DNA of 64,000 nt from Candidatus Zixiibacteriota bacterium (lineage in GTDB: Bacteria; Zixibacteria; MSB-5A5; JAABVY01), in assembly GCA_011056555.1 (NCBI GenBank), contig DSEQ01000032.1:1257-65256 (forward strand), written 5' to 3'. This document shows positions 23,924-60,054 of this stretch, piece after piece (position 1 is the stretch's first letter; every line of letters begins with the position of its first letter). A program made the translations under genes and the position numbers. The notes beneath the pieces were generated by a model. The model was not told where the DNA came from. It ran no database searches and saw nothing but the letters and a program-made list of their open reading frames with translations.

Positions 23924-26900
23924 CTAGTCTTTGACACAACGAACAGAAAAACCGTTCCGCTTATAATTGCCGTAACGGTGGGTCTGGGAATAGTCGTAAT
24001 CCAGGCCACGGTACCATGCGTAGTCACTGCCGCCCTCTGTAGACGACCAATAGTGAGCGTAGATACCCAGACCGTTGAAGGCGCCATCGATGGAACTGTA
24101 TCCGCCAGGCAGCGCGGTAAAACCACTTTCATTGGTTGCGCCAGTGTTAGGACTCTGCCAGTGCGTTGTGCCTGTTTGCTTTAACTTGCCTCCTTCATCG
24201 GTACCTCGCCAGCCAATAGCATCAGCCTCTGCCTGACTCATGCCAAGATACATCTCCAATTGCTTCAGCTCCGCATCGCTGGGAACATGCCAGCCTTCGG
24301 GTGAGATATTTCTACTGTCATTTACGGCATACCAATTATACAATCTCCCATAAATAGCAACATTGGCCGGATCATTATTATAGTCGCAATAGGCCCCGGT
24401 GGAAAGTCCTGACCAGGTGCCGCCGTCTGTCACATTCGGAATAGAGTCGCCATTGCGATAATGAGTGACCTTCAAATTTTCACACATCCACCATTGATCG
24501 CCGATTTTTATGGTTTGATATACATTACCGTCGTAGTCGGTAACAGTTCCGGTTGAATCGGGAGCCTCCATGTAATTTCCATCGAAATTTGCTGTATCGC
24601 CCCAGCTTATTGTGTATCGAAGATTTGCAGGTTTTATCCAGTCCGGGACAATTCCCCAGGTGATCGTATAATCTCCGATTTCAAGATTGGTCAAGGTATC
24701 GTCCCCATTTCCGCTTGAAGTATAACCGTCAGGTCCTGAAATCGACCATGGTGCATTGATTGAATCCGGTATTGAATTTATAAATATCGTGCCAGGTGTG
24801 TCTTTAATACAGCGTATGGATAATCCGGCTTCCTTCGTATACATGAGTGCGCATCCGCGACCGATTTGCGACATCCCGCAATGCAGGAATCTAAACAACC
24901 CATGGTCAATATCGCATTCGGAGAAAGACCAGAAGCGGGCCATCTCATGCAAAAAAGTGTATTCTCCCGTGTCAAGCCTGTAACCTCCCGGGAGTGCTGT
25001 GAAAGCAAATTCATTGGTGGCACCTGTATTGGGATCGAGCCAGTGCGTTGTGCCGATTTGCTTTAACTTGCCTCCTTCATCGGTACCACGCCAGCCGGAA
25101 GAATCAGTCGATTCCTGGCTCATGCCCAGAAACATCTCAAGCTGTTTCCACTCGGCATCAGTGGGCACATGCCAGCCATCAGGGGCGACATTGCGGCCGT
25201 CATTTACAGCATGCCAGTTATATAGTCTGCCATAGACAGGTACATGGTCCGTATCGTTGTTATAGCTGCAATATGCTCCCGTTGTTAGATTTTCCCAGTC
25301 TATATCATCGGTCACATTTGGTATGGAATCGCCATTGTGATAATGCGTGACCTTCAGATTCTCACACATCCACCATTGATCGCCGATTTTGATTGTTTGA
25401 TATACATTGCCGTCATAGTCGGAAACCGTTCCGGTTGAGTCGGGAGCTTCCATGTAATTTCCATCAATATTTATCGTTTCGCCCCACGTTATTGTGTATC
25501 GAAGATTTGCAGGTCTTATCCAGTCGGGGACAATTCCCCAGGAGATCGTATAATCTCCGATTTCAAGATTGGTCAATGTGTCGTCTCCGTTTCCGCTTGA
25601 AGTATAACCGTCAGGTCCTGTGATTGACCATGGTGCATTAATGGAATCCGGTATTGAATTTATAAATATCGTGCCGGGTGTATTTTGGATGCAGCGTATT
25701 GAATAACCATACCTACAATGGATGCTGTTGCGGCGAACTTGAGCATATTGATAATATAGCTGTCGATACCATGCGCTATAATCACCCGCAATTGTGGACG
25801 ACCAAAAAGCTGCATACCAGCCCCAAGCATGGAGGAAGCTTCCATTGTCATGACGATACACCCCGGGTAAAGCTGTAAAGCCACTTTCGTTGGTCGCTCC
25901 AGAGTTAGGGTTATCCCAATATACTGTTCCGGTGTCCTTCAATTTGCCGCCTTCATTAGTGCCGCGCCAATCTAATCCATCGGCTTCTGCCTGGGGCATT
26001 CCAAGAAACATCTCCAATTGTTTCCATTCAGCATCGGTAGGCACATGCCATCCTTCCGGCGCAATACTGCGGCTGTCATCTACGGCAAACCAATTATATA
26101 GCCTTCCAAAAACGGGAACGTTTTCTTCATTATTGTCGTAGTTGCAATAGGCTCCGGTTGATAGATTCACCCAGGTGGCACTGTCTGGAATATGGGATAT
26201 AGGATCACCGTTGCGATAGTGAGTGGCCTTCAGGTTTTCAGCCATCCACCATTGATCGCCGATTTTGATGGTTTGATAGACATTACCATCAAAATCGGAT
26301 ACTGTTCCGGTCGAATCTGGCGCTTCGGAATATGTACCTGCAAAAATCATGGTATGATTTGGCACGAAATTACGAGTTGAGCCGCAGGGCCGCAGCCATC
26401 CGAACACGGGTTCCCATGTTAGTATATATTCGCCGGCTTCAAGGTTAGATAACGTATCATCACCATTTCCACTTGCGGTATATCCATTTGGGCCTGAGAG
26501 TGACCATGGGGCGTTGATAAAATCAGGCGAAGGGTTGACTGCGATCCTGCCTGGGCTGTCTTTCACGCATCGAACAGATAGTCCGAAAATTTCAAAGACA
26601 TCCTCGCGTTGAATCTGTGAGTAGGAGTAAGCAAGTGCACGTATAATAATTTCACCACTAAAGTCCACCGTAGAGCACCAAAATGCGATAACATTATAAA
26701 TATCGTGGAATTGACTGAATTCGCCCCGGTAGCCTGCAGGAAGAGCGGTAAAACCACTTGAGTTAGTGGCTCCTTCATTGGGGCTTGCCCAATGATCAGT
26801 TCCGGCTTCTTTCAACTTGCCGCCTTCATCCGTGCCGCGCCAGTCCCATGAATCCGCCTGTGCCTGATCCATGCCGAGATACATTTCCAGTTGTTTCCAT

Positions 26901-27502
26901 TCACCATCAGTCGGCACATGCCATCCTTCCGGTGCCAACTTGCGGCTGTCATCTACTGCATACCAGTTGTATAATCTGCCATACGTTTCGACATGATCTT
27001 CATTATTGTCGAAGTTGCAGTAGGCACCGGATGTCAAATCCTGCCAGGTCGCGCTGTCGGGCGCATGGGATACGGGGTCGCCATTGCGGTAATGGGTAAC
27101 CTTTAGATTTTCCATCATCCAGCATTGATCACCGATCAAAACTGTCTGATAGACATTTCCATCGTAATCGGTTATTGTGGATGGACAGTTGGGATCGCAG
27201 TCTGGAAAACCGTCGCCATTGACGTCGCACGGATCATTTCCTTCTATAAATACATAATTGATTATCCACACCGCGTCACTGATATTTACTGATCCGTCGC
27301 AATTTACCTCACCAGATAAGAAGGGGTCAGGCTCAGGTCCACCAATAAATACATAATTAACAATCCAGACTGCATCACTGACATTAACAGAGGCATCATT
27401 GTTCGCATCTCCGCAAATATCTTGAGCCGGCAAATTTTTAGTGCTTAATCCAATAAAGACGATTATTGTGGCAAGGGCGAGGAGATGAAAATTGATCCGC
27501 AT
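23924..27502 (-). CDS. secreted 1,192-aa protein: dockerin-like repeat pair + four FISUMP domains separated by three Ig-like spacers
   Basis: I prefer the ATG at 27502 after GGGAGGAGGGATATC. It gives the signal peptide MRINFHLLALATIIVFIGLS. The dockerin-like repeats are GDANNDASVNVSDAVWIVNYVF and VNCDGSVNISDAVWIINYVF. The FISUMP consensus (DGNVYQT..IGDQ.WM.ENLK.THY.NGD / YGRLYNW.AV.D.R / GWHVPTD.EWKQLE / S.RC.KD) occurs four times. Confidence 0.85.
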   Translation of the reverse strand: MRINFHLLALATIIVFIGLSTKNLPAQDICGDANNDASVNVSDAVWIVNYVFIGGPEPDPFLSGEVNCDGSVNISDAVWIINYVFIEGNDPCDVNGDGFPDCDPNCPSTITDYDGNVYQTVLIGDQCWMMENLKVTHYRNGDPVSHAPDSATWQDLTSGAYCNFDNNEDHVETYGRLYNWYAVDDSRKLAPEGWHVPTDGEWKQLEMYLGMDQAQADSWDWRGTDEGGKLKEAGTDHWASPNEGATNSSGFTALPAGYRGEFSQFHDIYNVIAFWCSTVDFSGEIIIRALAYSYSQIQREDVFEIFGLSVRCVKDSPGRIAVNPSPDFINAPWSLSGPNGYTASGNGDDTLSNLEAGEYILTWEPVFGWLRPCGSTRNFVPNHTMIFAGTYSEAPDSTGTVSDFDGNVYQTIKIGDQWWMAENLKATHYRNGDPISHIPDSATWVNLSTGAYCNYDNNEENVPVFGRLYNWFAVDDSRSIAPEGWHVPTDAEWKQLEMFLGMPQAEADGLDWRGTNEGGKLKDTGTVYWDNPNSGATNESGFTALPGVYRHDNGSFLHAWGWYAAFWSSTIAGDYSAWYRQLYYQYAQVRRNSIHCRYGYSIRCIQNTPGTIFINSIPDSINAPWSITGPDGYTSSGNGDDTLTNLEIGDYTISWGIVPDWIRPANLRYTITWGETINIDGNYMEAPDSTGTVSDYDGNVYQTIKIGDQWWMCENLKVTHYHNGDSIPNVTDDIDWENLTTGAYCSYNNDTDHVPVYGRLYNWHAVNDGRNVAPDGWHVPTDAEWKQLEMFLGMSQESTDSSGWRGTDEGGKLKQIGTTHWLDPNTGATNEFAFTALPGGYRLDTGEYTFLHEMARFWSFSECDIDHGLFRFLHCGMSQIGRGCALMYTKEAGLSIRCIKDTPGTIFINSIPDSINAPWSISGPDGYTSSGNGDDTLTNLEIGDYTITWGIVPDWIKPANLRYTISWGDTANFDGNYMEAPDSTGTVTDYDGNVYQTIKIGDQWWMCENLKVTHYRNGDSIPNVTDGGTWSGLSTGAYCDYNNDPANVAIYGRLYNWYAVNDSRNISPEGWHVPSDAELKQLEMYLGMSQAEADAIGWRGTDEGGKLKQTGTTHWQSPNTGATNESGFTALPGGYSSIDGAFNGLGIYAHYWSSTEGGSDYAWYRGLDYDYSQTHRYGNYKRNGFSVRCVKD
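24425..24799. repeat. tandem duplication unit, copy A (spacer plus start of FISUMP module 4)
   Basis: By eye, about 115 of 125 encoded residues are identical to copy B, with high nucleotide similarity. It is offset exactly 882 bp (294 codons) from copy B. Confidence 0.8.
25307..25681. repeat. tandem duplication unit, copy B (spacer plus start of FISUMP module 3)
   Basis: Encodes TPGTIFINSIPDSINAPWSITGPDGYTSSGNGDDTLTNLEIGDYTISWGIVPDWIRPANLRYTITWG...DGNVYQTIKIGDQWWMCENLKVTHYHNGDSIPNVTD, which is nearly identical to copy A. Confidence 0.8.
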
Positions 27503-27679
27503 GATGATATCCCTCCTCCCGGGATAAAAATTAGATTGTAGATTCAGAAGGGTGCGCCCCATTTGGCTGCAGATTACAAAGGTGTTTTAAGAAACTAAAA
27601 ACCCCTCGTGGAGGTAAAGTCAAAATATCTAATGATTAGAAGCATGACCCTCCCAATAATTTGTGAAGTTCTCAAAAAT

Positions 27680-30794: not shown

Positions 30795-31801
30795 CAAACA
30801 AAATATCACATGACTCACAGGAGTTGCTCGACCCGGTTATGCGTCTCCTGCGCGACAATCCGGAGAAGACCTATTCGATCAGGGATATCGCAAAGAAGAT
30901 CGACATCCCGGATAAGACTGCCCGTGAGGTGATTGGCGGGCTTTCGGCATGGGGATATCGGTTCGAACTCGATGACCGCTCGCGGTTCAGATTTCTCTCT
31001 GCCCCGGATGCCATCTTTCCCTTTGAGATCCAATACGGCTTGAAAACCAAATATCTCGGCAGCGAAATATCGTCCCATTATACAGTGACTTCCACCAATA
31101 CCATTGCGCATCAGATGGCTGAAAGCGGTGCGCCTGAGGGGACGCTGGTGATTGCCGAACGGCAGCGCGGGGGCAAGGGACGTCTGGGACGGGTATGGCA
31201 TTCGCCGCCCAAACTCGGGTTATGGTTTTCGCTGATACTGCGTCCCGATATCGATCCGGCAGCAGCTCCCAGCCTGTCGATTTTGTCCGCGCTGACCCTG
31301 AGTGAGATATTGCGCTCGAAATATAAACTGCAATCATTCATCAAATGGCCCAATGACTGCCTGATCGACAACCACAAGGTGACCGGAATCCTGACCGAAC
31401 TTTCGGCCGAGAATCATAAGATCGATTTTGTGATAGTGGGGATGGGGATCAATGTCAACCTTGCGGCAAAAGATTTTCCGCCCTTTTTAAGGTCAACCGC
31501 AACCTCGCTCTATCTCGAAACCGGCGATAAGATCAGGCGGGTGGATCTCCTGCGGAGATATCTCGAGGCTTTCGAGAAAAATTATGATATTTTCAAAACG
31601 AAGGGCCTGAAGCCGTTCCTTCCGCGCATCAAAAGACATTCGCTCTTACTGGGCAAGAAGATCAAGCTCAAGATCGGGCGCAAGATTATTCAGGCGGAGG
31701 CGCATGATATTGATTCCGACGGCGCGCTTCTGGCCAGGCACCGCAAGGAAATCCTGCGGGTCACCGCCGGCGAGGTCACTGTGATCGAGCACAGTAAATA
31801 A
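30791..31801 (+). CDS. birA: bifunctional biotin-[acetyl-CoA-carboxylase] ligase / repressor BirA
   Basis: N-terminal wHTH segment, GRGRLGR-type motif (QRGGKGRLGRVWHSPP) and KWPND. It overlaps nadC by 4 nt. Confidence 0.9.
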   Translation: MTNKISHDSQELLDPVMRLLRDNPEKTYSIRDIAKKIDIPDKTAREVIGGLSAWGYRFELDDRSRFRFLSAPDAIFPFEIQYGLKTKYLGSEISSHYTVTSTNTIAHQMAESGAPEGTLVIAERQRGGKGRLGRVWHSPPKLGLWFSLILRPDIDPAAAPSLSILSALTLSEILRSKYKLQSFIKWPNDCLIDNHKVTGILTELSAENHKIDFVIVGMGINVNLAAKDFPPFLRSTATSLYLETGDKIRRVDLLRRYLEAFEKNYDIFKTKGLKPFLPRIKRHSLLLGKKIKLKIGRKIIQAEAHDIDSDGALLARHRKEILRVTAGEVTVIEHSK

Positions 31802-31810
31802 TGTGATTTT

Positions 31811-31989
31811 GGGTGCCCCCATCCCCGGTGGGCCGATCTCGGCCCATAAGGGATGGGATATTTTTTTCGAATCCTTGAATCAACCATCGGTTAGAAAATG
31901 AATTTGTGGCGGGCACCCATGCGGAAATCTAATTCCGCGTTGAGGCAGATCCTCAGATCTGCCGTCCGTCAGGTCTGAGGACCTGACGG
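31811..31989. repeat. intergenic palindromic repeat cluster (family A copy 2 plus three back-to-back perfect hairpins)
   Basis: The family A copy is GGGTGCCCCCATCCCCGGTGGGCCGATCTCGGCCCATAAGGGATGGGATA (31811-31860). Its head is complementary to GGGCACCCA at 31911-31919. Three hairpins follow: GCGGAA-ATCTAA-TTCCGC (31921-31938), GGCAGATC-CTCA-GATCTGCC (31944-31963) and CCGTCAGGTC-TGAG-GACCTGACGG (31966-31989). Confidence 0.75.
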
Positions 31990-32016
31990 AACGGGGATTA
32001 TTCACTGATACACTTA

Positions 32017-33219
32017 TCAATCTTCCCAGACAGGTCTTTTTATTTTGCCAATGAATAGAATGCCGTGTGTATAATTGTCTCTGATGACAAGGAGAAACGG
32101 TCTGTCCACATAGAACTTGGCACCGCTGTTGGGTTCCCTTATGGAATCCAAGCGAATAGAGGAAAACGCTGCCGCGATTGTGCCCTCCTCATCCATCTGG
32201 AAAGAGGTCTTGTGTAATGCCTGACCGATATATAACGCACCCGGGAAACATGCTGTGCCGCCATTGAATGCCTTACTCATCCCCATATTTGCAAGAATAC
32301 CGCCAATGTCTCCGCCATATATTACCTTGATTTTCGGGAGGAATAGGGTCACAGAGTCAGTCTCCATTCGTGATGTCCAGCTCTCTAGGCTGTCCTGGAT
32401 GAATGATTTTGCGAGTTCGTCAATGTCACTGGGATTGGGCGGAACAAAGACCAGCAGACTGAATACTCCTTTTCCATAGGGGATTTCGATTCCACGCAAG
32501 TCTTCATTGATAAAATACGAATAGCTACTCTTTTGGCTCATTGTTTCCCATTGCAGGCTTTCTTCGTTTGTGACAAAGAATTTACCCGTCAAATTATTTT
32601 CTATCGAAAATTGTGACGACCATAATGCCTCCAGATATACAGTATTCATTAGGTACATTACTGCACCCCCCGGGATGGGTTTTTCCAATGCGAATTTGAT
32701 TTTGCCGTGCGTTTTTTTTGAAACCCAATCGTTTATTTCCTCCCTGGTTTTGGGGTCGTCAAAATCCCTAGTGTTCACGTCTGCGTTGAATCTCCTTGTG
32801 AACAGGTCACTGTATTCTTTTGCAATACCCCCTCTTACCCAGATCGAGTTTGCAATTTCGAGAATTACATTAGAATCCAGAGCAGGCATCTTTTCCATCA
32901 AACCAAAGTATCTGTTATTAACAAGACGTACATTTGTCCCAGATACGCAAAGAACCTCATCTATTGAGTCTTTTGTGTCAGAAAACGCCAAATTATTGGT
33001 CATCCCCAGGGCATAATGCATGCTGAATGGCGAGATCACGATATTATCGGCGGTGTCGAGCTCGCAGAATGTGTGGAAGAACTTGAAGCCGAAGCAGTTG
33101 ATTGCTTCGATTTGCTCCAATTCATCATTGGTAAAACTCACCTTTGCCTGATCCTGTCCTGCCAATATCGGACTCAGAACTAAGATAACGGCAACAATTA
33201 ATGTCAGTACCCCTCGCAT
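32017..33219 (-). CDS. secreted serpin (copy 1)
   Basis: Signal peptide, serpin core, hinge/RCL EEGTIAAAFSSIRLDSIREPNSGAKFYVDRPF and C-terminal FLLVIRDNYTHGILFIGKIKRPVWED. Confidence 0.85.
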   Translation of the reverse strand: MRGVLTLIVAVILVLSPILAGQDQAKVSFTNDELEQIEAINCFGFKFFHTFCELDTADNIVISPFSMHYALGMTNNLAFSDTKDSIDEVLCVSGTNVRLVNNRYFGLMEKMPALDSNVILEIANSIWVRGGIAKEYSDLFTRRFNADVNTRDFDDPKTREEINDWVSKKTHGKIKFALEKPIPGGAVMYLMNTVYLEALWSSQFSIENNLTGKFFVTNEESLQWETMSQKSSYSYFINEDLRGIEIPYGKGVFSLLVFVPPNPSDIDELAKSFIQDSLESWTSRMETDSVTLFLPKIKVIYGGDIGGILANMGMSKAFNGGTACFPGALYIGQALHKTSFQMDEEGTIAAAFSSIRLDSIREPNSGAKFYVDRPFLLVIRDNYTHGILFIGKIKRPVWED

Positions 33220-33249
33220 TTTACACCTCCAATGTTTTTATTTTAAGTA

Positions 33250-33318
33250 CTGTGCCGGGCGTACCTCCGGGTGCGCCCGGGATTTATCGCGGCGCACGAG
33301 ACGTACGTCGCGCACAGT
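33250..33318. repeat. intergenic palindromic repeat (family B, inverted pair)
   Basis: GGCGTACCTCCGGGTGCGC is the reverse complement of GCGCACCCGGAGGTACGCC at 8338. It is followed by a direct-orientation relative, GCGGCGCACGAGACGTACGTCGCGCACA. The outer arms are ACTGTGC...GCACAGT. Confidence 0.65.
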
Positions 33319-33321
33319 TTT

Positions 33322-34560
33322 TTAATCTTCCCAGACAGGCTGCATGATCTTGCCCATGAAGATTATCGCTCCGGTGGTCTTTTCATGGATGACGAACACG
33401 AACGGCCGATCGAAACGGATTTCCTTTGACTGGGGCATGGCCTTGGTCATCATCTCAACTGCGGTGACAGCCGCCGCCTCGGTGCCTTCCTCATCAACCT
33501 GCACAAAAGTCTTGTGCAGGACACGACTGATGAAAAGCTCGCCCTCCGGCTCCATGCCGCTGAAATCGGCAGCATCCATATCAAAGGCCACTCCCATGCC
33601 CATGGACGCCAGTGGATCATTCATAGTTTTGCTGTAACGCATCTTGAACTTCGGCAGGTAGAGCCTGACCTCTTCCGTATCGAAGCTGTCTGACCAGTCG
33701 CCCCATTTCTCGGAGGTCAAAGTTTTGATGATATCATTCGGCGTCTTGTCTTCTGCAGGCAGGATTGCAGTCATGGCAAAATTCTCATCGCCATAGGGCA
33801 GTTCAACAGCCCGAAAATCCTCATTTTCCAGAATCGTGAATTCATTTTTCTGGTACATCATATCCACCGTAGTGTCTTTTTCGGCGGTTATATGAAACGG
33901 CATCGGGCTCGTACGCTCGGGATCGAATTCGTAGGTCCAGGTGCCCTTGAAATAGATGGCGTTAATCAAGTAGAGCATAATATTGGGATGAACAGGGTAG
34001 GAGATGATCTCTGTAATCTTGCCGTTGGTTTTTTCAGAGACCCAGTTGTTGATGATATCAATTGATTCCTCAGCATCGAGATTTATCCCCTCCACACGGG
34101 AATCAAAATATTTTCTGTTCAACTCCAGAAATTCCGGTTTGAGCTGGTAGTTTTACCTGAACCAGATTGAATTGGCGATTTTCATGATTACGCTGGTGTC
34201 AAGTGTTGTCAGCTTGTCAATCAATGACTTGTAAAATTCGTTGATTTCGATATTCTCTCTTTCACCGTATTTCAGTACCTCACGCATAGCCGTCTCAGTC
34301 TGACCCTGGGCGCCGTTGTAGGTCATACCCAGCGCAAGAGATATGCTCATGGGCGAGATGAATATATTTTTGTCGGGTTCGGTCTGATCTGTCTGCTGGA
34401 ACAGCTCGAATGAGAATTGATTGATATCAACGACCATAGCCTGATCGATGAGGACTTCTTCCGGCTTTTCTTCTTCTTCTGCGTCATCAGCATTACCGTT
34501 GCCGCATGCGCTCAGAAAAAACACGGCCAGGAAAATAGATATTAATGAGATTAACCTCAT
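33322..34560 (-). pseudogene. serpin (copy 2, lipoprotein signal) interrupted by one in-frame TAA
   Basis: Track ORFs 34153..34560 and 33322..34122 are in the same frame. Read through, the sequence is ...IANSIWFR-TAA-NYQLKPEFLELNRKYFDS.... The paralog at 34743 has Gln at this position (SIWYRQGFEVEQEF). The N-terminus MRLISLISIFLAVFFLSAC carries a lipobox. The RCL is EEGTEAAAVTAVEMMTKAMPQSKEIRFDRPF. Confidence 0.65.
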
Positions 34561-34688
34561 GCTACTCCTCCTTTGATAATTTTATTCCATGTGCATTACA
34601 ATCTACAAATAATATTATTCCCGTCAAATTGGTATAAAAAATAAAAGATCCTGCGGGACTGGTAACGGGTAAATAGTCTATACTGAGT

Positions 34689-34725
34689 AAAAAAAGAAAA
34701 AGCCCGCTGGAAAAGCGAGCTTTTT
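34689..34725 (-). terminator. rho-independent terminator after serpin copy 3
   Basis: The reverse strand reads GCTCGCT-TTTCC-AGCGGGC followed by TTTTTCTTTTTTT. A T-run is also present on the plus side, so it may act in both directions. Confidence 0.6.
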
Positions 34726-34742
34726 ATTAGAAATTGCAAGCT

Positions 34743-35981
34743 CTAATCTTCCCAGACTGGATTTGAGATTTTACCCATAAACAGGATGGCATCGGTATAT
34801 TGGTCGTGGATCACGAAGAAGAACGGCCGGTTTATGTGCATTAAATTTTCATTGGGATCGATGGAGGTGGTTCCGATTTCCACCACTGTGACAGCGGCAG
34901 CCTCGGTGCCCTCCTCATCGACCTGCACGAAAGTGCTGTGCAGGACTGAAGTTATATAAAGGTCAATTTCGGGATTTATACGGCTGAAATCGGCATCGTA
35001 TGGCTCAAATGCTATTCCCATACCAAGGGCGGCAAGATCGGGTTTCAGTTCTCGATCATATTTCAGTTTGAATTTGGGCATTTTGATAATGGTTGTATCC
35101 GCTGTAAAATTCCCCATCCAATCCGACCAGGCGTCATCATCCATCTGGTCGATAAGATCATCGAGTGGATGCCCCTGGCGAGGCAGAAAGATCGACATAC
35201 AAAAGCCCGCATCCCCATAGGGAAGCTGTACCGCCTGGAAATTGTCATTGAAATATCTGAAAAGCTCATTTTCCTGATGCATCATATCGCAGTCGACCGC
35301 AGCGCCGCCGGACAGATAAAAATCTTCTACCTCTGTGTCGTCGGGATCGAATTCATATTTCCATGCGGCTTTGAAATACACAGCATTGACTAAAAACATC
35401 ATGGTCAGGGGATCTATTTGCTTGATGACATCCTGGATTTTGTCATGTGTCTTTTCTTCGATCCAGTCGTTTATTATATCTTTGGCGCCGGGATTATTGA
35501 AATTGAGCGCGGCGACATAAGCATCGAAATATTCCTGGTTAATGTCGATGAATTCCTGCTCTACCTCGAATCCCTGGCGATACCAGATCGAATTTGCGAT
35601 TTCCATTATGACTTCCGGATCGATTGTTATCAGCGTCTTTGTCAGATCACGGTATGATTCATTGATCTCTAAATCATCCATACCCGCAAATCCGAGAACA
35701 TCAGCCATCGCCTCTTTGGTCTCACCCTCGGCGCCGTTGTACGTCATCCCCAGTGCATAGGAGATACTCAATGGGGAGATAAAGATATTGGTATCGGCCT
35801 CGTTGTTGACAATTTCCTTGAAGATATTGAATGCAAAGCTGTTTGACGCTGTTATAACTTCTCTTTGCGCCGGTGTCAGATTGGGCGGATCGATCGGGCC
35901 GGGCTTCATAGCTGTGTCGCTGCATTGCATGATCAGCAGCAGGAATATCGAATAAAATAAAATCAATGCTTTCCTATACAT
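34743..35981 (-). CDS. exported serpin (copy 3)
   Basis: I prefer the ATG at 35981, which lies 7 nt after GGAGG. It gives MYRKALILFYSIFLLLIMQC. The product has a full serpin core, RCL EEGTEAAAVTVVEIGTTSIDPNENLMHINRPF and the C-terminus ILFMGKISNPVWED. Confidence 0.85.
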   Translation of the reverse strand: MYRKALILFYSIFLLLIMQCSDTAMKPGPIDPPNLTPAQREVITASNSFAFNIFKEIVNNEADTNIFISPLSISYALGMTYNGAEGETKEAMADVLGFAGMDDLEINESYRDLTKTLITIDPEVIMEIANSIWYRQGFEVEQEFIDINQEYFDAYVAALNFNNPGAKDIINDWIEEKTHDKIQDVIKQIDPLTMMFLVNAVYFKAAWKYEFDPDDTEVEDFYLSGGAAVDCDMMHQENELFRYFNDNFQAVQLPYGDAGFCMSIFLPRQGHPLDDLIDQMDDDAWSDWMGNFTADTTIIKMPKFKLKYDRELKPDLAALGMGIAFEPYDADFSRINPEIDLYITSVLHSTFVQVDEEGTEAAAVTVVEIGTTSIDPNENLMHINRPFFFVIHDQYTDAILFMGKISNPVWED

Positions 35982-36256
35982 AATAGCCTCCATGTCATCG
36001 GGACAGTAATATATTCACTATATCGTTCAGTTTCCGATATAATTGATATAGTCCCGGATATCATTTCGGTTTGAATTCTACTCTGTTGTCCCTTCCAGTA
36101 AATCTAAACGCAATAGAGGGGATATTGTCAAATAATATCTTCAGGAATTATAGAATTTATGTGGAGAAAAAAACGTAATATATTGAAATGCAATAGATTA
36201 GCCGCAGCAGACACGCCGGCGACATTTTTTTGGCGGCTAAAAACGGCTGAAACAGC

Positions 36257-36284
36257 TTGACTTATGGCGATTCGGGATTAAATT
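36257..36284 (+). promoter_or_regulatory. sigma70-like promoter candidate for rpmG
   Basis: TTGACT (36257-36262) - N16 - TAAATT (36279-36284). Confidence 0.35.
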
Positions 36285-36376
36285 ATGCAATCCGGTGAAC
36301 GGTTCCGCCGTATGGATGTTATTACTGTCACCGGCCGACAATATTTGTAAATGTCGCTTAGTATAGTGAGGTTCTT

Positions 36377-36544
36377 ATGGCCAAGAAGAAAAAAGATATT
36401 CGCACGCATATAAAGATGCGCAGTACCGAGAGTACATACGTTTATCATACTTTCAAGAACCGGCGTAACGATCCGGATCGCCTGCAGTTCAAGAAGTATG
36501 ATCCGATTCTGCGCAAGCATGTGCTTTTTAAAGAAGAGCGCTAA
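36377..36544 (+). CDS. rpmG: 50S ribosomal protein L33 (Cys-less type)
   Basis: Below the ORF-track size cutoff. It translates to [55 protein letters not shown]. Compare the E. coli L33 C-terminus ...[33 protein letters not shown]. Confidence 0.85.
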
Positions 36545-38547
36545 TCTTTTGCTTCGATATCTACATCGATCGATAATTCCGAGGTGCCTGATTCTGTGAT
36601 TTCAACGGGCACCTTTACTTTTATATCGTCGATCATACATACGCCCGACTTATCACTGCAGAAATATACCACAGCATCAAAATCCAGTTCTGTCGTACCG
36701 GGCATGCCTGTAGTTGCAAGAGTCAATGGCAGACTTTTCGGGGATATATTCAGTTCTGACGGTTTTTGAGTGAACTCCAGGCTGCCGTTGTCTGATTTAT
36801 AATCTATCGAAAATGGAGAGTTTTCGATGTATTTGTAGCCCTCGGGAAGTCTGAGGTTGAATATTACTTTGCTGTCGCCCGCCTTGAGATTCTGTTTGGG
36901 CAGTTCCACAATACGTCCGGTGAATTCAGCCTCTTCTTCACGCTGCAGTCTTTCCAGATTCGAAAATTGCAGTGTGCTGACTGTACCGGCTTTTGTATCG
37001 ATTACCCTGATAGCATGATTATTCACATCGGCCACATATAATTTCCCATTGAGATATGTTATCCCGCCCGACTCATAAAATTTCGCATCATTCAATCTGC
37101 CGTCTTGATGGCCCGGTTCGCCGGTACCGGCATATGTGTAGCTTGTCCGCTTCTCTGGATCGATTTTCTTGATCTTGGAATTATAAGTGTCGGCGACATA
37201 CAGGATTCCATCATGGTAGACTATTCCCAATGGATGCTGGAGGCGAGCTTTGGTATGATCGCCGTCAATATCACCATATTCGAAAAGATCTTCGCCTACG
37301 ATAGTTCTGATCTCACCATCCGGATCTATATCTGCTGATCTTATCGAGCTGATTTCGCTGTCGGTGAAATAAAGTTTCCTGCCGTCGGTCGCAATTCCGC
37401 TGGGCTGAGCCAGGGCGGCCTCAGCCAGAGGACCGTCTATACGTGCCTCACGGGCCGAGCCGGCGAATGGTTTGGCTTGCAGTGTATTCAGATCGGCTGT
37501 CCATAGTTGATGTGATCCCGCCATGGCGATATATAAAATATCGCCAACCTTGACCAGATCCCAGGGAGAATTGAGACAAACATCGGTGCCTATACCGGGA
37601 ATATTGTAACGGTCGGCCTGCTCTCCGCATCCAAGGATTGTCTCCACAGTTCTATTGTCTAAGTCGGCCCTGCGGATCAAATGGTTTTCTGTATCGGCGA
37701 TATAGAGGATGTTATCTTCCATATATGTTCCCTGGGGACGATTAAATTCCGCTTCCTCGAATGAGCCATCTTCCTGACCGTTATTGCCCGAGCCGATAAC
37801 CTCAAAAATCCTGCCGTCAGGATCAGTTATAATAATTCTGTCATTATTGGAATCCGTGATAATAAGCCTGCCCGATGCGGAATCAGCTTTCACCTTGCCG
37901 GGGAATGAGAGAAGCGTGTTCAGCATTTCGGCTTTCTCAAGATCAAGCTTCAATGGCCGCGGTTCAAGTTCACCGCGGGCGGAAAAGTATTCAACTGCCT
38001 GTCCGATGATTTTATCAAACGGTTCATATATCCCCTCACCGGAATGGACCCCGATAATTTTGCCTTTGGGATTGATCAGGACGAATGAGGGCCATGCGCT
38101 GACTCCATATTTCCGCCATATCTTGAAGTCCCTGTCGTTGACAACCGGATGCTCTATACCATAGCGAAGTATCGCCTGACGGATTGCCTCGGTGCCTTTT
38201 TCATTTGTAAATTTGGCTGAATGAACTCCTATTACGACCAGTTCCTCGTCGTATTTTTCTTCGAGTTTTTTTAAATCGGGGATGACATGCATGCAGTTGA
38301 TGCAGCAGAATGTCCAGAAATCAAGAAGTACCATCTTACCGCGAAAATCCTTCAGTGCAAAAGCGCGATCAGAATTCAGCCAGTCCATCCCCTCGGGAAA
38401 ATCCGGAGCGTTAGTATTTCCTTCCAGAAAATCATCTATCATAACTTTCACACTTTCTACATCATTCTGCGCCTGAGCATCACACGCGATGACCAGGGCG
38501 GCTGAAATCAATGCCAGAAGCATAATTGTACTCGTGAAAAATCTCAT
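36541..38547 (-). CDS. secreted thioredoxin-like (TlpA/redoxin, CxxC) + NHL-repeat beta-propeller protein (NHLRC2-like architecture)
   Basis: Signal peptide, then [19 protein letters not shown] (redoxin CxxC). Multiple NHL-type repeats follow ([38 protein letters not shown] and [13 protein letters not shown]). A beta-sandwich-like tail ends the protein. Confidence 0.85.
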
Positions 38548-40409: not shown

Positions 40410-40760
40410 GGGTGCCCCATCTCCGTCGCGCCGATTTATCGGCCCGTAAGGGGTGGGATTATTGAAAACAGGAAATCCATCAGTTGTCGGGCGCCCCAAG
40501 CTTTGGGGCCTGCTGAAAAAGCCTCAATATCAGGAAAGTGTGTATTACGTCATTCCGAGGGAGTCCCGACCTTTGGTCGAGGACGACCGTGGGAATCTCC
40601 GCGTTTGCCCTTAGAATGACCGCGGAGATCGCCACGTCGCTTCGCTCCTCGCGATGACGTATTCCGGTACATTCAGGTTTATTAACAAGTCCTGACGATT
40701 GGGTCACCCGAGCCGTCGGGAATGCGTTTTCGTCATTGGCCGGATCAAAGACCCGACGGC
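40410..40760. repeat. large intergenic repeat cluster (family A copy 3, family C copies 2-4, additional hairpins)
   Basis: Family A copy: GGGTGCCCCATCTCCGTCGCGCCGATTTATCGGCCCGTAAGGGGTGGGATTA (40410-40461). Hairpin: CCCCAAGCTTTGGGG. Family C copy: GTCATTCCGAGGGAGTCCCGACCTTTGGTCGAGGACGACCGTGGGAATCT (40549-40598). On the reverse strand: GTCATCGCGAGGAGCGAAGCGACGTGGCGATCTCCGCGGTCATTCTAAGGGCAAACGCGGAGATTC (40594-40660). Paired arms: GCCGTCGGG...CCCGACGGC (40711/40752). Confidence 0.75.
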
Positions 40761-45244: not shown

Positions 45245-46066
45245 TCAAAATATCTCGAACTCGGAGAGTTCGCGGTTCAGGCGCTGTACCTCCTCGCGCG
45301 CCTTTTCGGCGAAGTCCACGCCATCGGATGCGTAGATAACCGAACGGCTGACATTGATGAGCGCGATCGATTTTCCATTGTCGGTGCCGAACCTGGCGGA
45401 TGCCTCCAGGTCGCCTCCCTGGGCTCCGACCCCCGGGATCAGGAAGGGAAGATTGCCGGAAATGTTGCGCATCTCTTTGATCTTGTCCGGATGCGATGCC
45501 CCTACCACAAGACCGAGGTTATCACTTTTATTCCATTTCTGCACATTTTCAGCCACAATCTCGTAAAGCGGCTTGCCTTCAACATTTCGAAGCTGGAAAT
45601 CCTGAGAGCTGGGATTGGAAGTCAGCGCCAGCACAAACGCAAATTTGTCCTTATATTCGAAAAACGGTGCCAGCGAATCCTCTCCCAGATAGGGTGAGAC
45701 TGTAACCGCATCTCCTTCCAGGTATTCGAAGACCGCCCTGGCATACATGCGCGAGCTGTTGCCGATGTCGCCGCGTTTGGCATCCACAATTACGGGGACC
45801 TCCGAAGGGACGGCCGTAATTGTCGCCTTCAGTATTTCCATCCCATTCGGCCCCAGCGCTTCGTAGAAAGCGGAGTTTGGCTTATACGCCACGCAAATGT
45901 CGGAGGTAGCCTCGATGATAAGTTTGTTGAATTCCAGTACGGGATTTTCTGTCGATTTCAGATGATCTGGAATTTTATCCGGGTCGGTGTCAAGCCCGAC
46001 ACATATCAGGCTCTTACGTTCCTTGACAAGCTGGGAAATTCTTTCCTTGAATTTCATGATTACCAC
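45245..46066 (-). CDS. pyrF: orotidine 5'-phosphate decarboxylase (type 2)
   Basis: Motifs LICVGLDTD, VIVDAKRGDIGNS and PGVGAQGG. Confidence 0.9.
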   Translation of the reverse strand: MVIMKFKERISQLVKERKSLICVGLDTDPDKIPDHLKSTENPVLEFNKLIIEATSDICVAYKPNSAFYEALGPNGMEILKATITAVPSEVPVIVDAKRGDIGNSSRMYARAVFEYLEGDAVTVSPYLGEDSLAPFFEYKDKFAFVLALTSNPSSQDFQLRNVEGKPLYEIVAENVQKWNKSDNLGLVVGASHPDKIKEMRNISGNLPFLIPGVGAQGGDLEASARFGTDNGKSIALINVSRSVIYASDGVDFAEKAREEVQRLNRELSEFEIF

Positions 46067-46976
46067 CCAATTTTCCTATTAATTCGGATATATCAGATAT
46101 ACCCGTTTGTTTTAAATAATCGGTCAGACCTTCGGCAGCTTTTACCGTGCAGTCGGGATTTATGAAATTGGCCGTTCCGAACTGAACCAGCGAGGCTCCC
46201 ACGATCATGAATTCGGCCACATCAAAATGGTTCATTATCCCGCCAATTCCGATCAACGGGATCTTCACAGCATTATAGACCTGCCATACCTTTGCCAGGG
46301 CTACGGGTTTTATTGCCGGACCCGATAATCCTCCGGTAATATTGGTTAAAATCGGCTTGAAAGTCCAATGATTTACTCCCATGCCGACCAGAGTGTTAAT
46401 GAGCGAGAGACAATCGGCTCCGCCTTCCTCGGCCGCTCTGGCGATCTCCGCTATGCTGGTGACATTGGGAGAAAGCTTTATTATCAGCGGATAGCGTGAA
46501 ATCTTTTTGAGCGCGGTCGTTAATTCGCTGGCCCGTCTGACGCTGGACGAAAACTCCAGGCCGTCAGCGCCGACATTGGGACAGGAGATATTGATCTCAA
46601 GCATATCGATGCCGTCTGTGTCATTCAGCCGTTCCACTGTATAAGTATATTCCTCAATAGAGAAACCGGCCACATTAACGATAATGCGCGTATCCAGAGT
46701 CTTCAGAAAGGGGATTTTTTCCTCGATGAATTTATCCACGCCCACATTGGCAAGACCGATGGCATTAAGCATACCCGCTGCGGTTTCATGTGTTCGCGGC
46801 GGGGGATGGCCGGGTCGGGGATGTTTGGTTATTGATTTTGTAACTATCCCGCCCAGTTTGGAAAGGTCGATGATCTGGTTGAACTCTTCGCCGTAGCCGA
46901 ATGTGCCCGAGGCGGTCAAAATCGGGTTTCTGAACCTGATTCCGCAAATTTCGATCGAAAGATTGGCAATACTCAT
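46014..46976 (-). CDS. pyrD: dihydroorotate dehydrogenase, catalytic subunit (class 1B)
   Basis: Motifs F.NPILTASGTFGYGEEF, EINISCPN and LIGIGGI. An ATGA overlap joins it to pyrK, and its 3' end overlaps pyrF. Confidence 0.9.
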   Translation of the reverse strand: MSIANLSIEICGIRFRNPILTASGTFGYGEEFNQIIDLSKLGGIVTKSITKHPRPGHPPPRTHETAAGMLNAIGLANVGVDKFIEEKIPFLKTLDTRIIVNVAGFSIEEYTYTVERLNDTDGIDMLEINISCPNVGADGLEFSSSVRRASELTTALKKISRYPLIIKLSPNVTSIAEIARAAEEGGADCLSLINTLVGMGVNHWTFKPILTNITGGLSGPAIKPVALAKVWQVYNAVKIPLIGIGGIMNHFDVAEFMIVGASLVQFGTANFINPDCTVKAAEGLTDYLKQTGISDISELIGKLGGNHEIQGKNFPACQGT

Positions 46977-47767
46977 AATTCCACCTCTTCGGCATCAAAA
47001 ACCGGTCCCTCCTGGCAGACACGGTAGTAATCATTCCTGCCGCGCATCTTAACAGCGCATCCCAGGCAGGTGCCGACCCCGCAGGGCATCGCGCCCTCCA
47101 GGGAAAGCTGGCAGGGAACTTTGAAACTGAGGGCAATCTGGCCCAGCCGTCTCATCATCGCGTTGGGGCCGCAGGAATAAATCCTGATCTTCTCATGTCT
47201 CAGCTTTTTAGCATAATGGGCCTCGAATAAATCCGTGACAAAACCGTGAAAACCAAAACTCCCGTCATCGGTTGAGAACTCTAAGGGAATATCGAGTTTG
47301 AGCAGATCATCGGCCATTGGTTTTTCTGAGACGGTTTTCATGCCGAGCAGAAAGAGGATATTCTCTTTCGGGAAGTTATGCTTTTCTACCAGAAACCTGC
47401 TGAAAAAATAGAGTGGGGGAAAACCGACTCCGCCCGCCACCATAACTGCCCGTTCCCCATCCTCCGGCAGTTTAAAGCTGTTTCCGAGAGGACCGATACA
47501 GTCGAATTCCTGATCTATTTCAGCTTGTGAGAGGATATGGGTGCCCCTCCCGACTGTCCTGAAAACCATCTCGAAGGTTTTCCCGTCAGCGTAATGAATG
47601 CTCATGGGGCGCCGGAATATTGGATCCAGACCTTTGGAAACCTTAATCTGCACGAAATTGGCGGGAACAGCACGAGAAGCGAGGCTTTCTCCCTCGAACT
47701 TCAGATGAAACAGGTCAGGAAGAAGCTGTTTTTTCTCTACCACCCTCACACCGGGATTAAAGATCAT
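46973..47767 (-). CDS. pyrK: dihydroorotate dehydrogenase electron-transfer subunit
   Basis: The FAD/NAD-binding fold carries RPMS and GGVGFPP motifs. The C-terminal 2Fe-2S ligands are CGVGTCLGCAV. I prefer the ATG at 47767, which overlaps the upstream stop as ATGA. Confidence 0.85.
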   Translation of the reverse strand: MIFNPGVRVVEKKQLLPDLFHLKFEGESLASRAVPANFVQIKVSKGLDPIFRRPMSIHYADGKTFEMVFRTVGRGTHILSQAEIDQEFDCIGPLGNSFKLPEDGERAVMVAGGVGFPPLYFFSRFLVEKHNFPKENILFLLGMKTVSEKPMADDLLKLDIPLEFSTDDGSFGFHGFVTDLFEAHYAKKLRHEKIRIYSCGPNAMMRRLGQIALSFKVPCQLSLEGAMPCGVGTCLGCAVKMRGRNDYYRVCQEGPVFDAEEVEL

Positions 47768-49887
47768 TGTCGTCCCTTGATCTCGGGCGGCAGCTCCACC
47801 TTTATTCTGTAAAACTGCCATTGCTCAATATACTCCGGCGGTATTTGTCCAACATCGAATTCTGTGTATCTTAATGCTTCGACAGCCGCTTCGTCAATCT
47901 CTTTTATCCCCGAGGGCTGCAAAATCCGCCAATCGGTGGGCTTGCCCAGAAAGTCAATCCTGACCATGAAGCCGACATAACCTTCGAAGCGCGAGTAATA
48001 TGCAGAGGGCGGATAAACAAAATCTCCCTCTTTTATCGGATCTCCATCAACCACATGCAGGGTGTCAATCAAAGTGGCGATTTCATTGGCAATGAGGGTG
48101 TCCTGCCCAATTATGACCATATCGCGGTCATCTTCAATTTCATCCTGATCCCCCGCCAATAATGTGTCCTGGGGAATTGTGTCCTGCTGCTGCTGAGGGA
48201 CCTTGGGCTTGGGAACCACCTTTTTGCCCAGTTTGACCAATGCGGAATCCCCGTATGGTGTGCCGGCATATTGATCGGCCACATTCTGATAGGCGATGAT
48301 AATAGTCGAATCAGGCACAGAAGTCGAGTCATTCGGATCCCATTCATCCGGTGCAACATGCTTCTCGGTCAGCCAGGCTTTGGCATAAGCCGCTTTGGGA
48401 GCATATCTGGAGTTGGGGAACTCATCGATTATGCTCTGCAGGATGACCAGGGCCGAATCGACATTGCCCTCATTGAATATAAGCTTCTCTGCGTTTTTGT
48501 ATCTCTGCCCGGCAAAATCGGTATCAATGCTTTCCAGATTTATATTCAGCTCCTTGGCGGCTTCCTCCACCTGGTCACTGGTGGGATATTTTTCAATTAT
48601 TTTTCTGTATTCGGCACGGGAGCTGTCCTGCATACCCAGATGCTTGTCGAAGATATAGCCTCGCGCCAGAAGTGCCTTAGGGGCATATTCACTTTCAGGG
48701 AAGCTGTCGATTACGACCTGGAACTCATGCAGGGCGGTATCCGGGTTCTCGAGCTCGAAGACATACAGCTCCGCCAGTTGAAACTGGCTTCGGGCAGCAC
48801 TTTCCAGGTCTTCCGCCGATGCTTCCTGGCGGTACTGAGAGAGCTTGCTGATATTAGTGCTTCTTTCTAATGCCATCTGATATATCTCAGAACGGCGGTT
48901 GGCGGTTATGGAGGAATCATACATCGCCTTTGCAGTTTCCAGGTCGCTGAGCTCGAGCATGTAAATCTCGCCCATTCTGTAAAAGGCGCGGGCCGCAGGA
49001 TCAGACCTTTGAAACTCCTCTGTGATTTTGGCATATTCCTCGATCGCCGCTTCCAGCTCGCCCTTCATCTCCAGCGCTTCCGCCAGCTTGAGCCTGATCA
49101 TCCCGGCCGAGCTGTAGTATTTTTCATCTTTGGATAATTTTTCAAATATCGCGTAGCCCGAATCAATCATGTCGATAGCATAATAAGATTCTCCCGCTTC
49201 AAACTGCGATTCAAAATACAGGCTGTCTGAAGGACCATAATCGGCCACATTCAGGTAGGCGTCTTTTGATGCTTCATAGTTTTCCAGGGAGTCATATGCC
49301 TGGCCGATTTTGAATTGCACCTGGGCTGCCATGCTGGCGTCAGCAAATTTTTCAAGATAACTTGAAAAGTATTTCACGGCCTGTTCGAAATTGCGCTCAT
49401 TGAATTCAATCTCGCCAATCATGTACTGCGCCTCGGCCTTCCATTTCCTGTTTTTTGTCACCGAATCGACTTGTATGAATGACTGGCGGGCGAGGATATA
49501 TTCTTCCTGTTTAAGGCGGCATTTGCCCAGGTAGAAGAGGGCCCGGTCATAATAATCCGATTCGGGATAGGCTGCCAGTAATTCACGGAATTTGCGTTCC
49601 GCCTTGGAGAAATCCCCCAGGTGATAGTAGGATTTGCCGATAATGAAAAGTGCATCATCGACATATTTGCTGTCCGGATGATCGGTTATTACCGTCAGTG
49701 ATTTCTCTATTGCCGCCTGGTACTGTGCGGACGATCCGCCGACCGCCTCCTCGGAGCCCTGCTTTTCCCGTTTACTCTCGGCCTCATTGAAATTCTTCTT
49801 GGCCAGATAGAAAGTGTTGAAATAAACACATCCCGAGAACAGGAGCATTATCGCTAATGCTATTGCTGTAATCTTAAAGAATCTCAT
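47764..49887 (-). CDS. lipoprotein with multiple TPR repeats and a C-terminal TonB_C-like domain
   Basis: I prefer the ATG at 49887, which gives MRFFKITAIALAIMLLFSGC with a lipobox. About eight YbgF/TPR-like repeats follow, then a Pro/Gln-rich linker. The C-terminus YPPSAYYSRFEGYVGFMVRIDFLGKPTDWRILQPSGIKEIDEAAVEALR resembles TonB C-terminal domains. Confidence 0.7.
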   Translation of the reverse strand: MRFFKITAIALAIMLLFSGCVYFNTFYLAKKNFNEAESKREKQGSEEAVGGSSAQYQAAIEKSLTVITDHPDSKYVDDALFIIGKSYYHLGDFSKAERKFRELLAAYPESDYYDRALFYLGKCRLKQEEYILARQSFIQVDSVTKNRKWKAEAQYMIGEIEFNERNFEQAVKYFSSYLEKFADASMAAQVQFKIGQAYDSLENYEASKDAYLNVADYGPSDSLYFESQFEAGESYYAIDMIDSGYAIFEKLSKDEKYYSSAGMIRLKLAEALEMKGELEAAIEEYAKITEEFQRSDPAARAFYRMGEIYMLELSDLETAKAMYDSSITANRRSEIYQMALERSTNISKLSQYRQEASAEDLESAARSQFQLAELYVFELENPDTALHEFQVVIDSFPESEYAPKALLARGYIFDKHLGMQDSSRAEYRKIIEKYPTSDQVEEAAKELNINLESIDTDFAGQRYKNAEKLIFNEGNVDSALVILQSIIDEFPNSRYAPKAAYAKAWLTEKHVAPDEWDPNDSTSVPDSTIIIAYQNVADQYAGTPYGDSALVKLGKKVVPKPKVPQQQQDTIPQDTLLAGDQDEIEDDRDMVIIGQDTLIANEIATLIDTLHVVDGDPIKEGDFVYPPSAYYSRFEGYVGFMVRIDFLGKPTDWRILQPSGIKEIDEAAVEALRYTEFDVGQIPPEYIEQWQFYRIKVELPPEIKGRQ

Positions 49888-50773: not shown

Positions 50774-50775
50774 AA

Positions 50776-51510: not shown

Positions 51511-51626
51511 AGCAGAACAATATGCTTCATGTGAATTATTTAGTCAAGTTATTTACAGAATTGCATTTTATACAAAAATTACAGTTTTATAGTTTATACA
51601 CATTTATTATTGTATAATCAGGTGAA

Positions 51627-52133
51627 ATGGGAAAAAAATCGAAAAATATGGCGATTATACTCCTGATGTCGGGGATAATCATTATTTCCGCTGTCTCTGT
51701 GTCCGCTCAGGACAGTTTAGTAATCGAGAAGCGCAAAAGGCACTCCCCCACAGGTGCATTACTTCGTTCGCTGGTTATTCCCGGCTGGGGCCAGCTCTAC
51801 AATGATAAATATATCAAGGCCGGATTAATTGCCGGGCTGGAATCATTTTTAATCTATCAGACCGCCTATTACTGGGATAAGACCTCCACCTATGAGGATC
51901 TCTATACCAGCGACACCAACTCTGTCAGCAGGTATGATAAATTTCTGCAGTTTGACCGTTATCGCGACTTGCGCAATCAGCATATATGGTTTTTGGGAAT
52001 AACCGTCGTTTATTCAATTTTCGATGCTTATGTGGATGCCCACTTGAAGAATTTCGATGTTGATATTACGCCCGATTTTGATGAAAATCGGCAGGATTTG
52101 ACCCTGTGGCTCAATTTGTGCATTAAATATTAG
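51627..52133 (+). CDS. small membrane protein (DUF5683-like)
   Basis: Signal/TM segment plus SLVIPGWGQLYNDKYIKAGLIAG, a motif I associate with DUF5683. This assignment is from memory only. Confidence 0.55.
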   Translation: MGKKSKNMAIILLMSGIIIISAVSVSAQDSLVIEKRKRHSPTGALLRSLVIPGWGQLYNDKYIKAGLIAGLESFLIYQTAYYWDKTSTYEDLYTSDTNSVSRYDKFLQFDRYRDLRNQHIWFLGITVVYSIFDAYVDAHLKNFDVDITPDFDENRQDLTLWLNLCIKY

Positions 52134-54292: not shown

Positions 54293-54302
54293 ATTACCGC
54301 AA

Positions 54303-55338: not shown

Positions 55339-55360
55339 TTTAATAAAGGGAAGCAGGAAA

Positions 55361-60019: not shown

Positions 60020-60054
60020 CCCCTTTTAGCTTATTTGATGTAGATCCCCGAAAA

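Follow-up and report, generated by a model that had tools for sequence, protein, structure and literature searches.

Characterised serpins from prokaryotes are few, and it is an open question why certain free-living lineages keep such genes (PMC8233489). What, then, is a free-living hot-spring bacterium doing with three of them side by side? The case considered here is a stretch of 64,000 nucleotides from a Candidatus Zixiibacteriota bacterium (contig DSEQ01000032.1), called the window throughout, in which three serpin genes, termed c1, c2 and c3, lie in tandem on the minus strand. We conclude that three exported, inhibitory serpins of the miropin type, which arose by ancient duplication, probably form a conserved cluster on the chromosome here. 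The window as given contains two intact serpin genes and one copy, c2, interrupted by a nonsense codon; the consensus of the natural population has three intact serpin genes, c2 included. From their sequences we infer the inhibitory activity, target classes, final location and physiological role of the three proteins.

The three co-oriented open reading frames (ORFs) reported by the initial annotation are present at the positions it gave, and each matches the Pfam Serpin profile (PF00079). The match of c1 (2e-80) covers profile positions 2-370 of 370 and that of c3 (7.6e-114) positions 2-370, and c2 matches as two pieces (1.4e-23 and 1.7e-86; profile 3-91 and 105-370). The loop strings and PVWED C-termini quoted for all three were exact, and the end coordinate of 35981 is the right start of c3, as this ATG has GGAGG 7 nt upstream and orthologues likewise start with MYRK. 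An alternative ATG at 35993 overlaps the Shine-Dalgarno sequence and was rejected. The paralogues are 33-44% identical pairwise. The closest sequence match in the PDB is miropin of Tannerella forsythia (5NCS) for both c3 (1.2e-77) and c1 (2.5e-50), followed by conserpin and animal serpins. An AlphaFold (AF2) model of c1, the only copy modelled, has a complete serpin fold (predicted local distance difference test, pLDDT, 80.4; predicted template modelling score, pTM, 0.80), and the top Foldseek matches of this model are all serpins, with E about 1e-35 and a template modelling (TM) score of about 0.8. The serpin fold of c2 and c3 rests on strong sequence matches to solved serpins. By these profile and sequence comparisons, all three are members of the serpin superfamily (Pfam PF00079 / MEROPS I4).

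A triple serpin array had been regarded as unusual, a view that does not hold within this lineage. The same arrangement of a thioredoxin-NHL gene, rpmG and three serpins recurs in the public metagenomic loci L002, L011/L012, L014, L015, L016 and L019. In L002, the order is c3-like, c2-like, c1-like, flanked by GDH and the thioredoxin-NHL gene on one side and by birA, nadC and a histidine kinase gene on the other. The array is also present in L014, L015 and L016, together with those parts of the L002-type flanks that their contigs reach, and L011/L012 and L019 have the thioredoxin-NHL gene, rpmG and then three or more tandem serpins. Other multi-serpin loci exist as well: a more distant organism (L013, 4300-15676) has three recently duplicated serpins with genes for type IX secretion cargo, one of them a peptidylarginine deiminase, in between. 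Serpin homologues in metagenomes number in the thousands, with 6,289 of 8,000 scored candidates passing E 0.001. Multi-serpin arrays are a regular feature in this group of uncultured bacteria. The closest relatives are metagenome-assembled genomes (MAGs) labelled Zixibacteria, Ignavibacteria or Aliifodinibius, and a literature search joining serpins with Zixibacteria, Ignavibacteria and similar groups found no paper dealing with both. The three-serpin array is uncharacterised, though conceptually familiar.

In a neighbor-joining tree, the serpins of these loci form three orthologous clades, with c1 as the deepest branch, and each clade contains the same two sub-lineages; the duplications therefore predate the split of those sub-lineages. 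Orthologues of c2 are 84-90% identical. All three genes are under purifying selection: the ratio of nonsynonymous to synonymous substitution rates (dN/dS) is lowest in c2 and c3, at 0.06-0.09, and reaches 0.18-0.19 in c1. The c1 type is rare: among 5.8 billion proteins, it has three close relatives (94%, 54% and 53% identical) and then nothing above 38%. In L015, the c1 orthologue (3825-5007) is called as three separate ORFs, of 114, 213 and 75 aa, and is either a frameshifted pseudogene or the product of assembly errors.

The proteins were aligned, with their orthologues, to human alpha1-antitrypsin; the reference sequence was validated by M358, S359, E342 and other residues falling where they should. 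The shutter and breach residues S53, S56, N186, W194, K290, H334, F384, G386 and P391 are identical in c1, c2, c3 and the orthologues, as are the hinge residues E342 (P17), G344 (P15) and T345 (P14), with small residues at P12-P10. The proposed check by PF00079 profile and alignment thus bore out a shutter and hinge compatible with the serpin fold in all three proteins. The hinge consensus of Spence et al. is ExGTEAAAA, i.e., with Glu at P13 (PMC8233489). In c2 and c3, the hinge reads EEGTEAAAVT, and Val at P9 is its sole departure from this consensus, in line with the initial annotation, which had both copies keeping the inhibitory hinge.

The reactive-centre loops, whose P1 residues were set by alignment to M358-S359 of alpha1-antitrypsin (Table 1), differ among the three copies. 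Read from P3 to P1′, the bait is Gly-Thr-Thr-Ser in c3 and Met-Thr-Lys-Ala in c2. Within each orthologous group, the bait is retained: EMMT-K-A is invariant in the c2 orthologues of four loci, the Thr-Ser pair is kept within the c3 clade, and c1 orthologues keep Arg at P5, Leu or Phe at P4 and Ile or Val at P1. In the deeper comparison, the loop has diverged further than the scaffold in c1 (38% vs 55% identity) and c3 (56% vs 80%); the loop of c2 is not faster-evolving than its scaffold. Since the loops have diverged from one another yet stay constant within each orthologous lineage, c1, c2 and c3 probably cover different protease specificities, and the suggestion that different loops imply different targets gains support from this conservation. 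Judged by P1 chemistry, c2 (P1 Lys) would act on Lys-specific, trypsin-like enzymes, c3 (Thr-Ser, as in miropin) on elastase- or subtilisin-like enzymes and c1 (P1 Ile/Val with a hydrophobic P4) on subtilisin- or elastase-like enzymes.

Table 1. Features of the serpin array and its surroundings in the window
Feature	Position	Strand	Details
Serpin gene c1	32017-33219	minus	400 aa, TGA stop; ORF and PF00079 match
Serpin gene c2	33322-34560	minus	412 codons, terminal TAA stop; broken at codon 136 in the window
Serpin gene c3	34743-35981	minus	412 aa, TAG stop
Reactive-centre loop of c1	32095-32190	minus	EEGTIAAAFSSIRLDSIREPNSGAKFYVDRPF; aligned P1 Ile360 (32140-32142), P1′ Arg
Reactive-centre loop of c2	33400-33492	minus	EEGTEAAAVTAVEMMTKAMPQSKEIRFDRPF; aligned P1 Lys373 (33442-33444), P1′ Ala
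Reactive-centre loop of c3	34821-34916	minus	EEGTEAAAVTVVEIGTTSIDPNENLMHINRPF; aligned P1-P1′ Thr372-Ser
Nonsense site in c2	34153-34155	minus	in-frame TAA, codon 136; plus-strand base 34155 is A in the window and C in public data, which gives GAA (Glu)
Intrinsic terminator after c3	34697-34725	minus	12-bp stem, then U-run
Promoter-like site 5′ of c2	34600-34627	minus	TTGACG, 16 nt, TAGATT; consensus match only
Stem-loops in the c2-c1 spacer	33250-33318	minus	GC-rich, -41 kcal/mol, without a U-tract; an A-rich stretch and then the c1 Shine-Dalgarno sequence GGAGGUG come next
Three consecutive perfect hairpins (6, 8 and 11 bp)	31921-31990	minus	3′ of the c1 stop, where c1 and birA converge
Intrinsic terminator of the convergent birA-like gene	31818-31857	plus	nested hairpin with 19-nt arms, then T-run

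All three proteins carry export signals, one a signal peptide and two of the lipobox type, exactly as the initial annotation described them. The type-I signal peptide of c1 spans residues 1-21 (33157-33219), ending in ILAG before QDQ, and this (A/F)G|QDQ junction is kept in the c1 orthologues; no lipobox is present, and c1 is probably a soluble periplasmic or secreted form. In c2, a lipoprotein signal, MRLISLISIFLAVFFLSA|C, places Cys19 behind a canonical lipobox, L-S-A-C (FLSAC; 34504-34560), followed by an acidic linker. The signal of c3 (35922-35981) ends in a lipobox-like LIMQ|C at Cys20 and is followed by a Pro-rich linker. Both c2 and c3 are thus predicted to be lipid-anchored via the N-terminal Cys, with a flexible linker of about 20 residues.

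Miropin offers the closest comparison. It is a surface lipoprotein in which the bonds V367-K368, K368-T369 and T369-S370 are used, Thr369-Ser370 being the canonical P1-P1′ pair (bioRxiv 10.1101/2025.09.05.674453), and its structures are available in the PDB (5NCS, 5NCT, 5NCU and 5NCW). The hinge of c2 and c3 is identical to that of miropin, both are predicted to undergo lipoprotein-type export, as miropin does, c3 keeps the canonical Thr-Ser at P1-P1′, and length and C-terminus are similar. The differences lie in the baits, the signal of c1 and the setting: c3 is without the key P2 Lys of miropin, c2 has Lys at P1 instead, and c1 has a type-I signal and no lipobox. Here, three diverged paralogues occur in a free-living hot-spring organism, whereas miropin is, as far as is known, one characterised gene of an oral, host-associated bacterium.

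Other serpins are more remote. Siropin 1 and 2 of Eubacterium siraeum (PMC8201313) and the cellulosomal serpins of Clostridium thermocellum (bioRxiv 10.1101/2020.04.21.053413) set precedents for more than one serpin in a bacterial genome and for extracellular protective roles. Unlike the proteins studied here, these belong to Firmicutes and are secreted or anchored through dockerins; serpins of this type (L007-L009) are only 25-30% identical to c1-c3, and a conserved tandem array of three genes has not been described among them. Thermopin, tengpin and Pnserpin are likewise inhibitory serpins from hot environments, and tengpin is among the PDB matches (2VH4, 2PEE and 2PEF), but they are more distant in sequence and encoded by single genes. 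The stabilising N- or C-terminal extensions of thermophile serpins are not evident in c1-c3, which have only a short conserved PVWE[DE] tail. Animal serpin clusters (SERPINA and SERPINB, and the alternative loop exons of insect serpin-1) show the same course of duplication followed by loop divergence, with the loop outpacing the scaffold. These clusters are eukaryotic, however, and related to c1-c3 by superfamily membership alone.

If the standard serpin suicide-substrate mechanism applies, a protease would cut the exposed loop at P1 or close by, after which the hinge would insert into beta-sheet A and the protease would be trapped as a covalent acyl-enzyme. Acting together, c1-c3 would probably shield envelope proteins from secreted proteases, whether foreign or self-made. 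A possible though less likely alternative is that the serpins regulate the secreted or envelope proteases of the organism itself, controlling zymogen activation or self-damage, rather than defending it against foreign enzymes. Such a role would fit the distant locus L013, with its serpins among type IX secretion cargo genes, and the dockerin and Fibrobacter succinogenes major paralogous domain (Fib_succ_major) surface proteins encoded in the window. In Tannerella, surface-anchored lipoprotein inhibitors, the potempins, are paired with that organism's own secreted peptidases (PMC9890683), and the C. thermocellum serpins are thought to protect the extracellular cellulosome of the cell itself, albeit from proteases generally (bioRxiv 10.1101/2020.04.21.053413). 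Speaking against self-regulation, no cognate endopeptidase gene lies adjacent to the array, in the window or in any syntenic locus, and the conserved neighbours are the housekeeping genes GDH, rpmG, birA and nadC. The only proteases encoded in the window are S9, M32, Lon and ClpXP enzymes. The exported S9 peptidase at 3241 had been put forward as a candidate target. It belongs to the prolyl-oligopeptidase family, whose members exclude large protein substrates, and is therefore an unlikely serpin target; its gene also lies 29 kb from the array.

A second alternative would make c2 and c3 the only inhibitors and c1 a non-inhibitory serpin, serving as a binding or chaperone-type protein or as a decoy substrate. 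The initial annotation raised this possibility, taking Ile for Glu and AAAFSS in the hinge as a sign that copy 1 may be less inhibitory or non-inhibitory. With Ile at P13 and Phe at P9, the hinge of c1, EEGTIAAAFS, does depart from the consensus, and several core positions are substituted. The clade is also the deepest and fastest-evolving of the three, with 54% identity between its sub-lineages as against 78-84% for c3 and c2, a higher dN/dS and only the three close relatives noted above. However, every position on which loop insertion depends has its canonical residue, namely, Glu at P17, Gly at P15, Thr at P14 and Ala-Ala-Ala at P12-P10, and neither charge nor proline occurs at the even positions that face inward (P8 Ser, P6 Ile and P4 Leu). 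P13 and P9 face outward after loop insertion, and P13 is tolerant in proven inhibitors; PAI-1, a potent inhibitor, carries Val there. Shutter and breach residues are intact. The c1 model takes a loop-inserted conformation and superposes best on loop-inserted serpins, including cleaved miropin at a root-mean-square deviation (rmsd) of 1.9 Å, which lends weak support to a hinge that may be at least sterically compatible with insertion into the sheet. Among c1 orthologues, the GTIAAxFSS hinge and the P5 Arg and P1 Ile-Val are kept, which argues for a selected bait. A non-inhibitory c1 is thus unlikely: nothing specific marks it as such, and c1, c2 and c3 are all probably inhibitors.

The remaining question about the genes themselves concerns c2, which the initial annotation treated as intact, missing the TAA at codon 136 that splits the gene into ORFs of 135 and 266 aa. 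The window was compared with a 185-kb public JGI hot-spring metagenome contig (L001), of which 21,251 bases, corresponding to window positions 24743-45993, were fetched. The two sequences differ at a single base, 34155 (A vs C; TAA vs GAA), and c2 is intact in the public contig, at 412 aa. Assemblies from two independent hot-spring metagenome runs also have C at this position, with word depths of 175x and 18x. Codon 136 is GAA, for Glu, in all c2 orthologues, in the context FRENYQLK in that of L002, and the truncated 135-aa product is on record in no gene call of the public assemblies looked up. Stop-codon recoding is not indicated, because TGA, TAA and TAG each end one of the genes here (c1, c2 and c3, respectively). 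The c2 stop is an isolated single-base difference of the window that no public data set backs. Comparison with an ENA assembly of the same organism shows no difference from the window over 6049-27317 and one over 45361-64000, a synonymous T/C change at 56269 in the trehalose-6-phosphate synthase (Glyco_transf_20) gene; real single-nucleotide polymorphisms (SNPs) between assemblies thus occur at roughly such a density.

Natural SNPs of this kind, the broken c1 copy of L015 and the presence of the TAA in the window sequence as given could be taken to mean that c2 is a genuine pseudogene in the strain of the window and that the array is decaying in some lineages. We regard this as improbable in view of the sense codon in the JGI contig, in both read-set assemblies and in all c2 orthologues, and the absence of the truncated product from public gene calls. 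Moreover, c2 does not otherwise differ from the intact allele, so an inactivation would be extremely recent, and transcript fragments 3′ of the stop match perfectly. Downstream use of c2 should start from the Glu136 form.

Several observations weigh against the conclusion that the locus encodes three exported, inhibitory serpins. The 64-kb window encodes no S1 or S8 endopeptidase that could serve as a cognate target. For c1, dN/dS is two to three times that of c2 and c3, the core carries the substitutions G67L, F190L, K191E, V218W and M220T, more than in the other two copies, and the P9 Phe of the hinge is bulky. For c2, assembled contigs drop rare variants, and the population may hold a minor nonsense allele. 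The P1 positions, obtained by counting, may be off by one or two residues, and miropin, which mainly uses its P2-P1 bond, counsels caution in this respect. As for export, the Gln at -1 of the c3 lipobox is non-canonical, though it is kept in most close c3-type relatives. Both proteins may be exposed on the surface; the likeness of the mature N-termini (CSDTAM in c3 and CGNGNADDAEEEE in c2) to signals for lipoprotein export in Bacteroidota, for example SDDDD or C-X-K-(D/E)2, is a loose one (PMC5080379).

How the array is expressed and delimited is addressed by the palindromes around its genes (Table 1). A canonical terminator follows c3, which is thus its own transcription unit, and the ATG of c2 is preceded by a strong Shine-Dalgarno sequence, AAGGAGG. 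In a sediment metatranscriptome, c2 is the only gene between 28 and 42 kb with perfect full-length read-sized contigs, two of 151 nt, which is weak evidence that c2 is transcribed. Several further metatranscriptome contigs match only about 33 nt at 40625-40663, between GDH and Lon, and then run into unrelated sequence. Matches to TAnnTTTG, the -7 promoter motif of Bacteroidota, number 29 against 35 expected, which is no enrichment.

The initial annotation had palindromic repeat clusters at 31811-31989 and 33250-33318 bounding and dividing the array. The clusters themselves are real, folding better than shuffled sequence with z-scores of -5.3 and -3.9, respectively, but they do not bound a unit, as they have no sequence in common and lie at transcript ends. 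The spacer motif occurs in single copy in the window, with no sign there of a dispersed family resembling repetitive extragenic palindromic (REP) elements, and a window-wide scan of short inverted repeats revealed no repeat family. Rfam has no match to 33220-33321 or 31880-32016, and only sub-threshold leader-family matches fall on the c3 terminator hairpin. The hairpins at 31921-31990 are conserved in L014, with changes mostly in loops. Altogether, the palindromes are best read as transcript-end and leader structures, not as mobile-element boundaries.

The c2-c1 spacer lies at window 33220-33321 (minus strand), L002 12774-12900, L015 3736-3845 and L016 1679-1758. Between the window and L002, identity is about 96% over the 3′ part of the spacer and about 79% over neighbouring coding DNA. 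Covariation across four orthologous loci gave no clean support for the one spacer hairpin considered: the folds predicted for the loci are not the same, L016 lacks hairpin 2, and the 5′ arm has diverged in L014 and L015. The spacer may be a promoter or leader of c1. Similarity between L014 and the window changes abruptly at this spacer, from 85% over 33404-36600 (c3 and c2; synonymous divergence, dS, 0.66-0.74) to 93% over 31604-33299 (c1 and downstream; dS 0.19). L014 carries a run of N at this point, and the jump reflects one of two things, recombination with its breakpoint here or a chimeric scaffold join within the MAG.

A bolder extension, which we hold to be doubtful, would make the locus a lineage-wide envelope protease shield with division of labour, in which the anchored c2 and c3 have stable specificities, the bait loop of the secreted and clade-restricted c1 evolves fast in an arms race with particular foreign proteases, and the spacer is a new cis-regulatory element for c1. 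That the array is instead a horizontally acquired cassette delimited by the palindromic clusters is highly improbable: palindrome-rich DNA does lie on both sides of c1, but no repeat is common to the two clusters, the spacer motif has no second copy in the window, GC content is not markedly anomalous (0.44-0.47 for the array, 0.43-0.51 for the window), the array sits in conserved synteny in six relatives with its three copies forming old orthologous clades, and no integrase or transposase gene is found near it.

The window is ordinary chromosome, encoding tmRNA, tRNAs, purA, two Lon genes, ClpXP, trigger factor, nadC and birA, along with rpmG, GDH, pyr genes, trehalose synthesis genes and uvrD. 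The thioredoxin-NHL protein reported near the array is indeed encoded there (36541-38547, minus strand). It carries a lipobox of its own (VIAC) and is a conserved upstream neighbour of the array in L002, L011, L014 and L019; its linkage to the serpins may be functional or mere synteny. Between this gene and c3 lies rpmG (36377-36544, plus strand), for a ribosomal protein L33 of 55 aa, an arrangement also found in L011, L014, L015 and L019. At this site, the public record has instead an 80-aa ORF on the opposite strand (36278-36520, minus), a call that is probably spurious. Farther off, a tmRNA gene (tag GENNFAMAA) adjoins two tRNA-Lys genes (2039-3066, minus strand). Several large exported proteins with Fib_succ_major domains are encoded at 5478-8123 (plus) and 23924-27562 (minus), and two of the Fib_succ_major proteins also carry dockerin type I modules. 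These proteins hint at an elaborate surface apparatus that the serpins might protect.

For the serpin family, the array provides three co-inherited scaffolds with distinct loops, which could help to compare specificity, and possibly thermostability, on a miropin-like frame. For the uncultured bacterial group to which the organism belongs, arrays of several serpins are not a curiosity but a regular feature.

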